A stretch of 41,625 nucleotides of DNA from IMG/VR virus record IMGVR_UViG_2529293039_000011; one strand, 5' to 3'. This DNA is from a virus (lineage: Duplodnaviria; Heunggongvirae; Uroviricota; Caudoviricetes). The notes under the pieces are model-generated. The model was not told the DNA's origin. It was given only the letters and a program-made list of their open reading frames with translations, and ran no database searches. Below, in pieces: positions 2,715 to 12,570 of the stretch. The position numbers and the translations under genes are program-made. Positions within the stretch are counted from its first letter, which is position 1, and the number at the start of each line of letters is the position of its first letter.

Positions 2715-5233
<2,519 letters not shown>

Positions 5234-8582: not shown

Positions 8583-8855
8583 TCATCTTGCTGTCAGTTG
8601 TTTGGATTTCCGGTAGCCTGCCGCGTAAAGAGCTACGTTCGGAAGACAAGTTGAGCCTTCATATTTTCTGGTCAACGTTGTCAGTGTTATTACTTCTGCT
8701 CTCATTGCTGGTTTGCGCTTGCATTGCAAGACCACTCGAGAGGGGGTTGGTCTGTGTAGCTTGTCGGAGCTAATCGCCTCCTGACTTTGCAGGTTTGCGC
8801 GACGAGCTCTACGACGAGAAGCTGAGGTGCCTTTAAATTCTGTTTTTCTGGACAT
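8583..8855 (-). CDS. N: N-like transcription antitermination protein (about 90 aa); the track ORF extends upstream to 8939
   Basis: Start chosen at ATG preceded by GGGAGG; N-terminal arginine-rich motif MSRKTEFKGTSASRRRARRANLQ typical of N proteins; position downstream of nutL and pL. Confidence 0.65.
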   Translation of the reverse strand: MSRKTEFKGTSASRRRARRANLQSQEAISSDKLHRPTPSRVVLQCKRKPAMRAEVITLTTLTRKYEGSTCLPNVALYAAGYRKSKQLTAR

Positions 8856-8953
8856 AGATTCCTCCCGAATAAACTTTGGTGATGCAATCTCGAAGCTCCT
8901 CCTGAGACGGTTGCTTCGGCATTGCATCCCACAGCTCATGTGGTTGGGTGATC

Positions 8954-9029: not shown

Positions 9030-9200
9030 TCCTGCTGACGGTTAAATAGTACGATATGTACTTTATTGGGTTAATACTATTTGTTCTAAAATAGGGTGAT
9101 TTTTTATAACACTTTGTATTTAATAGTGTTGTTTTTTAGCGTGGGTGTATCGCCTCGGCGATGTAAGGAGAGATCAGAATTGCGTGGTTTAGTGAGTTGT
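9030..9200 (-). promoter_or_regulatory. OL/pL region; palindrome AGTACGATATGTACT at 9048..9062 as candidate cI operator
   Basis: Palindrome shares the TACATAT/GTAC core with the OR candidate near 10948; lies between the immunity terminator and nutL; AT-rich. Confidence 0.35.
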
Positions 9201-9202
9201 AT

Positions 9203-10135
9203 CTATTTATTTTTCAATAAATACATTTGGTTATGTGTCTTTAGGTGGGGGCGTGAGGCAAAGAAAACCCGGCGCTGAGGCCGGGGTATGCATTTATGGT
9301 TTTTTTGGTCGTGCTTTGCTAGGGCTTTATGAGTTTTCTTAATGCTGCTTCTAACTTTCTGAATTTTTTCTTGGGAAAGTTTTATGTTTTCAGGGGCTGT
9401 TCCAGTGTTAGAAATCATTACATTGCGAACAGATCTCCCTACGGTCTCAGCAGCATTCTCTAGTTGAGACTGTCCCTTCAGGTTCTGGTTTCTGATTCTT
9501 GCTTCTGTCTGTGTAATTCTGAATATATTGGCCGCGAGCTCTTCGCTTCCCATGAAGTCAAGCATCGTTCCATCTTTTTTAGTTAGGCCTTTTCGAGCTT
9601 TCAACTGTGAGAGATTCATATTGTACATCCCACGGTAGCCCGCATTTTGAAATAGACCATAGTCGACTACTCCGTGTTTATGGGCTACATGACTGAGAGT
9701 TTTCTCTCTAGATGTAATCTCGCCACGCAAATAAACTCGATTAACTGCGTCATGGTTATGATATGTAGTGTGTATTTCTGCTGCGAGCCCAGCAAAATAA
9801 GCTTGTGCATTTGCAACTTTTTGATTGCTGATGTCACCATTCATTACAATCAGATAACAAGCGAAACGAGTTAATTTAAAGTCATTTTTCGCATTTTCTG
9901 AAGGCATCTGGATGAAGTTATCGTATACAGGGATATCGAGGCTCACACATACAGATGTAGCTTTGTTAATGGCTTTCAATATCTGATCCATGCCATTATA
10001 TCCAAGCATCATCGCTAAATCAGATGCAAACCAATAGGTAACACCGTTTTCTCTAGCGAAATCATCAAATGTTAACTGTGATGTGTCATCGAAAACAGTA
10101 ATTTGCCTACTCATATCACACCCGAACTTACTCAT
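9203..10135 (-). CDS. Hypothetical protein (310 aa) in the rexAB position, with a weak Bro-N/KilA-N-like N-terminal signature
   Basis: ATG preceded by AAGGGA; motif VTYWFASDLAMMLGY resembles the Bro-N W-F-x-A-x-D-x-x-x-x-L-G-Y signature; immediately downstream of cI on the same strand. Confidence 0.6.
   Translation of the reverse strand: MSKFGCDMSRQITVFDDTSQLTFDDFARENGVTYWFASDLAMMLGYNGMDQILKAINKATSVCVSLDIPVYDNFIQMPSENAKNDFKLTRFACYLIVMNGDISNQKVANAQAYFAGLAAEIHTTYHNHDAVNRVYLRGEITSREKTLSHVAHKHGVVDYGLFQNAGYRGMYNMNLSQLKARKGLTKKDGTMLDFMGSEELAANIFRITQTEARIRNQNLKGQSQLENAAETVGRSVRNVMISNTGTAPENIKLSQEKIQKVRSSIKKTHKALAKHDQKNHKCIPRPQRRVFFASRPHLKTHNQMYLLKNK
9259..9285 (-). terminator. Candidate intrinsic terminator of the cI-side immunity transcript, embedded in the last codons of the 310-aa ORF
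   Basis: Minus-strand hairpin CCCGGC-CTCAGC-GCCGGG followed by TTTTCTTTG; T-run also on the plus side. Confidence 0.45.
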
Positions 10136-10215
10136 CGATTTTCCCTTATATTAATATAATGTGGATAGTTTGTCGCCAACTCGCTAAAGTTATTCATTAT
10201 GAGGTTTGCCATCCA

Positions 10216-10875
10216 TCACCCAAACGTCTCTTCAGGCCACTGACTAGCGATAACTTTCCCCACAACGGAACAACTCTCATTGCATGGGATCATTGGGTAT
10301 TGTGGATTTAGTGGCTGTAGAAACACCTGACCGCTATCCCTGATCAGTTTCTTGAAGGTAAATTCATCACCACCAAGTCTGGCTATGCAGAAATCGCCGG
10401 GCTCAACAGCTTGCTCTGGGTCAACCAGAATTAACATCCCGTCAGGAAAACTAGGTTTGGAACCTGTTGGGGCGGTCATTGAGTTACCTTCAACCTCAAG
10501 CCAGAATGCAGAGTCACTGGCTTTTTTGGTTGTGCTTACCAATCTCTCCGCATCGCCTTTGGTAAAGGTTCTGAGTTCTGGAGAGAACATCCCAGCCTGA
10601 ACATGAGAAAAAACAGGGTACTCATATTGTTTTTTAACTGGGGCCGATGAGTATTCGCCAACAGGTGAAAATGTCCCGTCGTGGTTGAATGATATGTTAT
10701 CAATACCAAGGTATTTAAACACCACACCAATATCACTAAGAGATGGATGACGAGATCCGCGCAACCAGTGTCCAATCCCACCCTGCGTCATACCTAGCTC
10801 TTCGGCTAACTTCTCTTGAGTTATGCCGAGCTCTTTCATTCTGGATCTAGCCAGTTCATACCATTTCATTTTCAT
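10216..10875 (-). CDS. cI: cI-type repressor with LexA-like S24 autocleavage domain (about 220 aa; the track ORF extends to 11037)
   Basis: N-terminal HTH ([28 protein letters not shown]), C-terminal S24 domain with GNSM serine and FKKL lysine; start at MKMKW by position; divergent from cro. Confidence 0.85.
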
Positions 10876-10985
10876 GTCCTTATTATTACGCTCTGTATTG
10901 CAACCATCCATGCACAATGTGTATTTTTGCTTGCATTCAAAAAGTACATATTGTATTTTTTCTTCATGGTTACTATGGAGGGCAT
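10876..10985. promoter_or_regulatory. OR / pRM / pR region between cI and cro
   Basis: Candidate operators GTACATATTGTAT and CACAATGTGTA; candidate pR is TTGCAT, 17-bp spacer, TATTTT, upstream of cro. Confidence 0.45.
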
Positions 10986-11639: not shown

Positions 11640-11671
11640 GGTCATTACTGGATCTATCAACAGGAGTCATT

Positions 11672-12570
11672 ATGACAAATACAGCAAAAATACTCAACTT
11701 CGGCAGAGGTAACTTTGCCGGACAGGAGCGTAATGTGGCAGATCTCGATGATGGTTACGCCAGACTATCAAATATGCTGCTTGAGGCTTATTCAGGCGCA
11801 GATCTGACCAAGCGACAGTTTAAAGTGCTGCTTGCCATTCTGCGTAAAACCTATGGGTGGAATAAACCAATGGACAGAATCACCGATTCTCAACTTAGCG
11901 AGATTACAAAGTTACCCGTCAAACGGTGCAATGAAGCCAAGTTAGAACTCGTCAGAATGAATATTATCAAGCAGCAAGGCGGCATGTTTGGACCAAATAA
12001 AAACATCTCAGAATGGTGTATCCCTCAAAACGAGGGAAAATCCCCTAAAACGAGGGATAAAACATCCCTCAAATTGGGGGATTGCTATCCCTCAAAACAG
12101 GGGGACACAAAAGACACTATTACAAAAGAAAAAGAAAAGATTATTCGTCCGAGAATTCTGGCGAATCCTCTGACCAGCCAGAAAACGATCTTTCTGTGGT
12201 TAAACCGGATGCTGCAATTCAGAGCGGCAGCAAGTGGGGAACAGCAGAAGACCTGACCGCCGCAGAGTGGATGTTTGACATGGTGAAGACCATCGCGCCA
12301 TCAGCCAGAAAACCGAATTTTGCTGGGTGGGCTAACGATATCCGCCTGATGCGTGAACGTGACGGACGTAACCACCGCGATATGTGTGTGCTTTTCCGCT
12401 GGGCCTGCCAGGACAACTTCTGGTCCGGTAACGTGCTGAGTCCGGCCAAACTCCGCGACAAGTGGACCCAGCTCGAAATCAACCGTAACAAGCAACAGGC
12501 AGGCGTGACAGCCAGCAAACCAAAACTCGACCTGACAAACACTGACTGGATTTACGGGGTGGATTTATGA
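11672..12570 (+). pseudogene. O: Replication initiator O, interrupted by a 1-nt frameshift inside the origin (track ORFs 11672..12256 and 12082..12570)
   Basis: N-terminal frame MTNTAKILNFGRGNFAGQERNVADLDDGYARL... is lambda O; C-terminal frame ...GVDL ends by overlapping the P start; the span is 899 nt, not a multiple of 3. Confidence 0.75.
12021..12106 (+). repeat. Lambda-type replication origin: four iterons of about 18 bp, followed by an AT-rich tract
   Basis: Tandem repeats TCCCTCAAAACGAGGGAA, TCCCCTAAAACGAGGGAT, ATCCCTCAAATTGGGGGA, ATCCCTCAAAACAGGGGGA. Confidence 0.8.

Follow-up and report, generated by a model that had tools for sequence, protein, structure and literature searches.

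A DinD-family gene with a DdrC-like predicted fold in the rexAB slot of a lambdoid prophage

The immunity region of a lambdoid prophage was analyzed in a stretch of 41,625 nucleotides (nt) assigned to the Caudoviricetes (IMG/VR record IMGVR_UViG_2529293039_000011), which as a whole is called the window here. In phage lambda, the segment between cI and the terminator and left operator (OL) is occupied by rexAB. A first-pass annotation, made from the sequence alone, had placed a single open reading frame (ORF) of the window, called the cargo gene in the following, in the equivalent slot. This placement was borne out: a repressor with helix-turn-helix (HTH) and Peptidase_S24 domains lies upstream on the same strand, a Cro-type HTH gene is divergent from it and the gene of the N antiterminator follows downstream, so that the cargo gene sits in the cI-to-N (rexAB) slot. 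The ORF listing of the window gives a real gene of 310 amino acids (aa) on the cI strand with an ATG start, and a ribosome-binding site (RBS; AAGGGA, 10142-10147) is found 6 nt 5' of the ATG, both as first described. The hairpin-plus-T-run terminator was also found again, as a 6-bp all-GC stem followed by UUUUCUUU on the minus (coding) strand. It had been described as lying just before OL; here the order is right but not the closeness, since the most operator-like palindrome, AGTACGATATGTACT, which resembles AGTACATATTGTA in the right operator (OR), lies about 200 nt beyond the terminator. The cargo gene is already annotated in RefSeq, though poorly named as 'BRO family protein' (WP_000032717.1).

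For classification of the product, profile hidden Markov model (HMM) searches against Pfam and PADLOC were run, as the first-pass annotation had proposed. By sequence comparison, the whole protein belongs to the broad DinD family, which combines a Bro-N head with a DinD C-terminal domain. Pfam Bro-N was matched with an E-value of 6e-9, in agreement with the Bro-N-type N-terminus first noticed. The body of the protein had been called unrecognised, and this did not hold: the full length is matched by PADLOC HMM PDLC04919 of the class PDC-S13 (E 5.8e-86, residues 17-278), by phrog_8036 (E 1e-146), by the NCBIfam model 'DNA damage-inducible protein D' (NF008573 / PRK11525; E 3e-58, 197.4 bits, residues 22-278) and, in BLASTP, by DinD of E. 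coli K-12 (b3645; 33% identity over 258 aa, E 9e-44). The other PDC-S13 HMMs gave weaker matches (PDLC04918, 4.7e-33; PDLC04920, 3.7e-8). The conserved DinD motifs FQNAGYRGMYN and LDFMG.EELAAN.FRITQTE are both present. Because its score of 197.4 bits is below the curated equivalog cutoff of NF008573 (242 bits), the cargo protein is a homologue of DinD and not an equivalog. K-12 DinD itself scores 2e-121 on PDLC04919, and PDC-S13 is therefore the DinD family. K-12 DinD shares the two-domain architecture over its whole length with the cargo protein but is encoded at a chromosomal SOS locus, whereas the window gene is prophage-borne, follows cI and falls in a distinct clade together with prophages of Pasteurellaceae, Neisseria and Yersinia. 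The DinD family is large, with 2393 clusters at 90% identity in a word-indexed search and, in an exhaustive profile search, 6699 clusters at 50% identity at E<=1e-3 (3300 at E<=1e-10). The weakest of the 6699 clusters are probably in part Bro-N-only matches.

Structure prediction followed by a fold search, also proposed at first, resulted in a confident model and a match to DdrC of Deinococcus radiodurans. The AlphaFold2 model, calculated from 47 homologues, has a mean predicted local distance difference test (pLDDT) of 91.4 and a predicted template modeling (pTM) score of 0.83. It consists of an alpha/beta head up to about residue 100 and long helices after it. In a Foldseek search against the PDB, DdrC was the only significant match (E 2.8e-5, probability 1.0, about 230 columns), and the model shares the two-domain fold of DdrC (PDB 7QVB, 7UDI, 8U0G) with a winged-helix head and a helical C-terminal domain. 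By hhalign, the profile of the DinD clade was aligned to a 25-member DdrC alignment with an E-value of 2.7e-3, and a broader DinD alignment matched in the same register with 8.3e-5 (probability 61%, 121 columns). The aligned conserved residues of DinD and DdrC are R137-R120, D193-D174, G155-G138, Y159-Y144, G183-G168, E199/L200-E180/L181 and G221-G202. R120 and D174 form the 'holding clasp' of DdrC (PMC11347143), and the invariant R137 and D193 align with them. Residues 116-278 of the cargo protein carry a net charge of +11. Unlike in the fold comparison, there is no direct sequence match between the two proteins: identity is 16-23%, and phmmer and hmmsearch, with a single sequence and a profile against PDB sequences, gave no meaningful matches and did not find DdrC. 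DdrC is restricted to Deinococcota and is without a Pfam match; ddrC is described as having no identifiable homologues outside Deinococcus, its C-terminal domain matching no family (PMC11347143). In the literature searched, no paper connecting DdrC and DinD was found. From the profile and fold comparisons, it is likely that DinD and DdrC are remotely homologous. DdrC senses and stabilises DNA breaks (PMC11347143). It compacts DNA, and it binds nicks and double-strand breaks as an asymmetric dimer. The match is the best structural handle on the mechanism and, by analogy, the cargo protein might likewise be a dimeric binder of nicks or breaks. As a side observation, a DdrC-like protein of 256 aa (P0216) is 32% identical to D. 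radiodurans DdrC and 22% over the full-length alignment, far lower than the other full-length members of the DdrC family (>=47%), and could bridge to other families.

A second fold search, against BFVD, yielded KilA-N, Bro-N and antirepressor-annotated phage proteins, mostly as partial matches. Together with the Bro-N domain, these matches would suit a Bro-N-class antirepressor or transcription regulator that would target heteroimmune prophages or the expression of phage genes. Such a role is very unlikely in our view: the C-terminal domain is of the DinD/DdrC type and not KilAC/ANT, full-length fold matches were obtained to DdrC only, and a KilAC antirepressor is already encoded in the nin region of this prophage.

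The ORF of the window differs in length from the rest of the family. Of 5426 complete E. coli genomes, 10 carry the same DNA with 99.9% identity. One of them is that of the enteropathogenic E. coli (EPEC) strain E2348/69, where the counterpart WP_000032717.1 is annotated with 280 aa. Over 300 nt at the 3' end, the sole difference is a run of seven T in the window versus eight in E2348/69 and strain A25. On the coding strand, the A8 form ends with ...D Q K K P stop, the A7 form with ...D Q K N H K C I P R P Q R R V F F A S R P H L K T H N Q M Y L L K N K stop. In the A7 form, the frame changes three codons before the native stop and reading continues across the terminator. A length of 279-280 aa was found in 16 of 17 close relatives (82-100% identical). 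In the family form, the stop precedes the terminator stem by 8 nt, as is usual, and it is only through the -1 frameshift that the window ORF comes to include the hairpin. The form of 310 aa is thus not the family form, which has 280 aa. It had been suspected that the true C-terminus is shorter than the ORF; this is correct for the length, but the cause is a 1-nt deletion in the A8 run and not a miscalled stop.

A one-off sequencing error was rejected as the cause of the A7 run, as the exact 310-aa product occurs on 8 contigs of separate assemblies (1 complete genome) and in two prophage backgrounds. A small chance remains that homopolymer miscalls shared among these assemblies are its source. 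The complete genome (CP164306.1) carries the same cI and 310-aa allele in a different prophage backbone (L175 4614-5237), in which the allele is followed by a Nmad5-domain gene and then by the genes for CIII, Gam and RecT instead of those for N, Kil and Rad52. In the A7 allele, translation would run through the terminator hairpin and end at a stop codon 65 nt downstream. It is only an idea that this could weaken termination, and equally only an idea that transcripts of the repressor operon could then reach OL, nutL and N, which have the same orientation.

A further -1 homopolymer change is found in the window at 12124-12128, where a run of five A (...TATTACAAAAGAAAAAGAAAA...) corresponds to A6 in E2348/69 and in six further records. 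Through this change, the replication gene O is broken up into the ORFs 11672..12256 and 12082..12570. The same split O was called in the assemblies GCA_000249215.2 and GCA_000249195.2, and a near-identical viral contig (L010) has an intact O. Taken with the frameshift in the cargo gene, this second change could be read as a sign that the gene is a decaying remnant, with a non-functional allele in a defective prophage. We consider this improbable, since the A7 allele swaps only the last two residues for a basic tail of 32 residues and keeps both domains and all predicted helices (to residue 277), and since the 310-aa allele is retained unchanged in at least 8 assemblies and two prophage backgrounds.

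The boundaries of the inserted DNA could be deduced from phages with other cargo. Shiga toxin (Stx) phage 1717, the Stx2a phage 981509 and phage 2B8, which have nearly the same cI and cro, align with the window up to 10215/10218 and again from 9285/9306. Between these limits they carry a NYN-domain protein (phage 2B8) or a hypothetical protein of 173 aa (Stx phages, with the same repressor). As homology to the phages with other cargo stops at those limits, the swappable module consists of the 80-nt spacer and the gene. More than 1000 E. coli genomes share the flank with the terminator, and it carries the annotation 'terminator' in VT2-Sakai and mEp332. The GC content of the cargo gene is 39.8%, compared to 50.5% for the window; this is consistent with horizontal acquisition of the gene as a moron, placed between the cI stop and the terminator of the immunity region. 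The initial view of the slot as a site for exchangeable cargo is supported by this low GC content and by the other cargo in phages with the same cI. Outside this region, about 2 kb of the window (2879-4833) are without a counterpart in the prophage segment of E2348/69, which otherwise matches with 99.8%. The pattern resembles a mosaic replacement within the early-left (ea/exo-side) region.

A scan for a LexA box (CTG-N10-CAG) in 10136-10218 was negative, and dinD-like SOS regulation was rejected, there being no LexA box upstream. The best and only good LexA-box-like site in the window, TACTGGATCTATCAACAGGA (11646-11665), has 5 mismatches to the consensus and is located between cII and the start of O; it may simply be conserved lambdoid sequence. 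A conserved promoter of the cargo gene itself was not found either: the promoter scan detected no promoter-like site in the 80-nt spacer, and an alignment of cassette variants shows upstream conservation only around the RBS, within about 35 nt of the ATG. With neither a LexA box nor a promoter in the spacer, transcription from the repressor promoters is the simplest reading, and from its position the gene is most likely transcribed together with cI in the lysogen.

A role as recombination or RecA modulator serving the lysogen is one alternative to a defence function. Like K-12 DinD, the protein would limit RecA strand exchange, and it could thereby curb recombination among the many lambdoid prophages or tune RecA-dependent induction. 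According to papers that cite the original work (Uranga 2011, cited in PMC4849656, PMC10602874 and PMC4129442), DinD inhibits strand exchange by RecA and assists in taking RecA filaments off DNA; within the family, this activity is known for K-12 DinD only. The homology to DinD extends over the full length, the gene adjoins a RecA-cleavable S24 repressor, and dinD-like genes also ride streptococcal satellites beside the integrase gene. However, the identity to DinD is only 33% and the score remains below the NCBIfam cutoff (197 vs 242 bits), the gene is not SOS-regulated like dinD, transformation was not greatly affected when the dinD-like gene was deleted from a pneumococcal island (PMC10602874), and the strict placement after the repressor would have no obvious reason. 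On balance this role is unlikely, though it is a serious rival.

The similarity to DdrC, which was found in structure and profile, points to a further possible function. DdrC senses DNA breaks and stabilises them (PMC11347143), and a DdrC-like cargo protein with its basic C-terminal domain (+11) might stabilise nicks or double-strand breaks and help the host to survive genotoxic stress, as a DNA-damage tolerance factor gained by lysogenic conversion. Constitutive expression with the repressor would be an odd design for a damage response, however, E. coli already has a chromosomal dinD, and the gene is rare, with 10 of 5426 complete genomes. We therefore regard damage tolerance as quite unlikely, and clearly more so than the modulation of RecA.

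In addition, we analyzed the genomic context of relatives in 80 viral contigs, which encode proteins 47-100% identical to the cargo protein. The next ORF upstream in the same orientation was compared among them: of 68 distinct ones, 52 encode repressors with S24 and HTH domains. These repressors are highly diverse (mean column identity 10%), so the linkage is to the slot and not to one immunity type. In Pasteurella phage Pmp14, for example, cI is followed by a homologue (66% identical) and then by a toxin-antitoxin pair (L168 3357-3958). For the wider family, a crude neighbour scan was performed with one genome per species (80 genome loci, 41-69% identity, many phyla). Here the neighbours were heterogeneous and S24 repressors made up only 2 of 131, which makes the repressor linkage a trait of one proteobacterial prophage clade and not of the whole family. 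DinD-family genes are also carried by phages of Riemerella and Bacteroides and by streptococcal satellites, where the gene is close to an end of the record; in related streptococcal islands, a dinD-like gene was described immediately upstream of int. The PADLOC Specificity_I HMM PDLC03083 (717 positions) has a DinD-like N-terminal part (positions ~6-280), which is matched by K-12 DinD with 3e-114 and by the window protein with 6e-40. This implies the existence of DinD-HsdS fusions, and a dinD-domain coding sequence was reported as embedded in a Type I restriction-modification (R-M) locus (PMC9881135).

A close parallel in position is BstA of the Salmonella prophage BTP1 (Owen et al. 2021), a proven abortive-infection protein encoded directly after cI (PMC8585504). 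In BstA, a KilA-N head is joined to an uncharacterised tail. The protein prevents phage DNA from being replicated, and a cognate DNA element at the start codon of bstA, called aba, neutralises it (PMC8585504); aba spans the start codon and has terminal direct repeats. Both genes occupy the slot directly after cI, on the same strand and before N, followed by a terminator, and both are linked to prophage repressors. The proteins are similar in size (307 aa for BstA) and possibly also in the type of head, which is KilA-N in BstA and called Bro-N by Pfam in the cargo protein. In BTP1, a 29-bp match to the terminator of the window is found shortly after bstA, about 10-35 nt past its stop codon. Membership in the BstA family was rejected: BLASTP found nothing and the PADLOC BstA HMM (PDLC02356), on which BTP1 BstA itself scores 1.9e-124, gave no match at E<=1. 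By hhalign only a weak N-terminal match was obtained (E 0.092, 65 columns), and the C-terminal domains of the two proteins are unrelated. At the cargo gene, no aba-like element was recognised, only two-copy repeats of 7 nt, a size expected by chance, and one AT palindrome. The latter is a perfect AT-only palindrome of 14 bp (TTATATT/AATATAA, 10146-10159), which adjoins the RBS upstream and is not kept in the cassette relatives. Lambda RexAB has the same slot between cI and the terminator, where cargo is presumably transcribed from the promoters of the repressor in the lysogen. In contrast to the single ORF in the window, RexAB consists of two genes with a membrane component, RexB; the window protein has no match to a Rex HMM in PADLOC, and it is predicted to be a soluble DNA-binding protein rather than part of a membrane channel system.

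From these data, we tentatively favour the view that the cargo gene encodes a lysogen-expressed DNA binder with a DinD/DdrC fold, which would exclude superinfecting phages through an action on their DNA where it is nicked, broken or coated with recombinase. The gene would be co-transcribed with cI in the lysogen, and its product would be a two-domain DNA binder with a Bro-N winged-helix head and a basic C-terminal helical bundle of the DdrC fold. By analogy with DdrC and DinD, it would engage DNA in these states, which appears during replication or recombination of a superinfecting phage. Once bound, it would block these processes, resulting in exclusion or abortive infection. Family membership, predicted fold, slot, cassette boundaries and the linkage to repressors are observed here; co-transcription with cI, DNA binding, dimerisation and, above all, the anti-phage role are inferences. 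This view is favoured by the tight linkage of relatives to diverse prophage repressors and by PADLOC, which lists the family as defence candidate PDC-S13. BstA, with its KilA-N-type head and its position in the same slot, may count for exclusion by analogy, and the DinD parts in Type I R-M systems (PDLC03083; PMC9881135) provide a defence context in the wider family.

Several points weigh against exclusion. The characterised homologues act in DNA-damage responses and not in defence, and in the literature searched no anti-phage activity of any DinD-family protein was found. PDC-S13 is an unvalidated class, a candidate defence family of PADLOC-DB v2; it is named in no paper of that literature, and the preprint of Payne et al. 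contains no description of it. The crude scan of the 80 wider-family loci gave no clear defence-island signal, with the heterogeneous neighbours mentioned above. Expression in the lysogen is deduced from position, and the product of the A7 allele may be impaired by the C-terminal frameshift. Strong full-length homology to a characterised non-defence protein had been named in the first-pass annotation as a finding that would speak against a defence role, and such homology was found in part, to the SOS protein DinD of E. coli. Because of it, the exclusion of superinfecting phages is put forward as a hypothesis, and a plausible one.

Table 1. Features of the cargo locus and alternative cargo in related phages. 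Positions refer to the window unless another record is named.
Feature	Position	Strand	Description
Window-form ORF	9203..10135	-	310-aa DinD-family protein with frameshift-derived 32-residue tail
Family-form coding sequence	9294..10135	-	280 codons plus TAA at 9294-9296 in the A8 frame; WP_000032717.1 of E2348/69 at matching position
Frameshift site	9300..9306	.	T7 on the plus strand, A7 on the coding strand; one base short of A8
Bro-N domain	9806..10051	-	N-terminal, residues 29-110
Helical DinD/DdrC-like domain	9410..9790	-	C-terminal, residues ~116-242
Spacer	10136..10215	-	80 nt from cI stop to cargo ATG; contains RBS; counted with the cargo module
Intrinsic terminator	9258..9285	-	Stem 9268-9285, U-tract 9258-9267; shared phage backbone, not cargo
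cI-type repressor	10216..10911	-	HTH_3 and Peptidase_S24 (Pfam); RefSeq name in E2348/69 'LexA family protein'
Candidate OL operator palindrome AGTACGATATGTACT	9048..9062	.	Dyad scan; similar to 10943-10957 in OR
N antiterminator	8583..8939	-	Left edge of slot; Pfam N_peptide 7.6e-32; phrog_271
Alternative cargo, phage 2B8	L006 1631-2488		NYN-domain protein in the same slot
Alternative cargo, Stx phage 1717	L007 1907-2428		173-aa protein in the same slot

The cargo gene adds a new member to a known family and lies in a hotspot that was known already. The locus links DinD and DdrC by predicted fold and profile comparison, a link which apparently has not been reported before, and it shows one DinD clade that is consistently placed behind prophage repressors. 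It is possible, though on the whole doubtful, that DinD and DdrC form one superfamily of sensors of DNA lesions and intermediates, of which temperate phages of gamma- and beta-proteobacteria have put one clade under the control of the repressor operon, as a single-gene, BstA-like block on the replication of superinfecting phages. To our knowledge, an in vivo role of dinD was never established in decades of its use as an SOS reporter. If the proposal is true, it would provide the first one. Together, the link between DinD and DdrC and the placement behind repressors give a concrete hypothesis, in which a binder of nicks, breaks or recombination intermediates is used for phage exclusion. If exclusion should fail as an explanation, the locus would still illustrate clearly how an insert of the DNA-repair type is placed in a phage immunity region.

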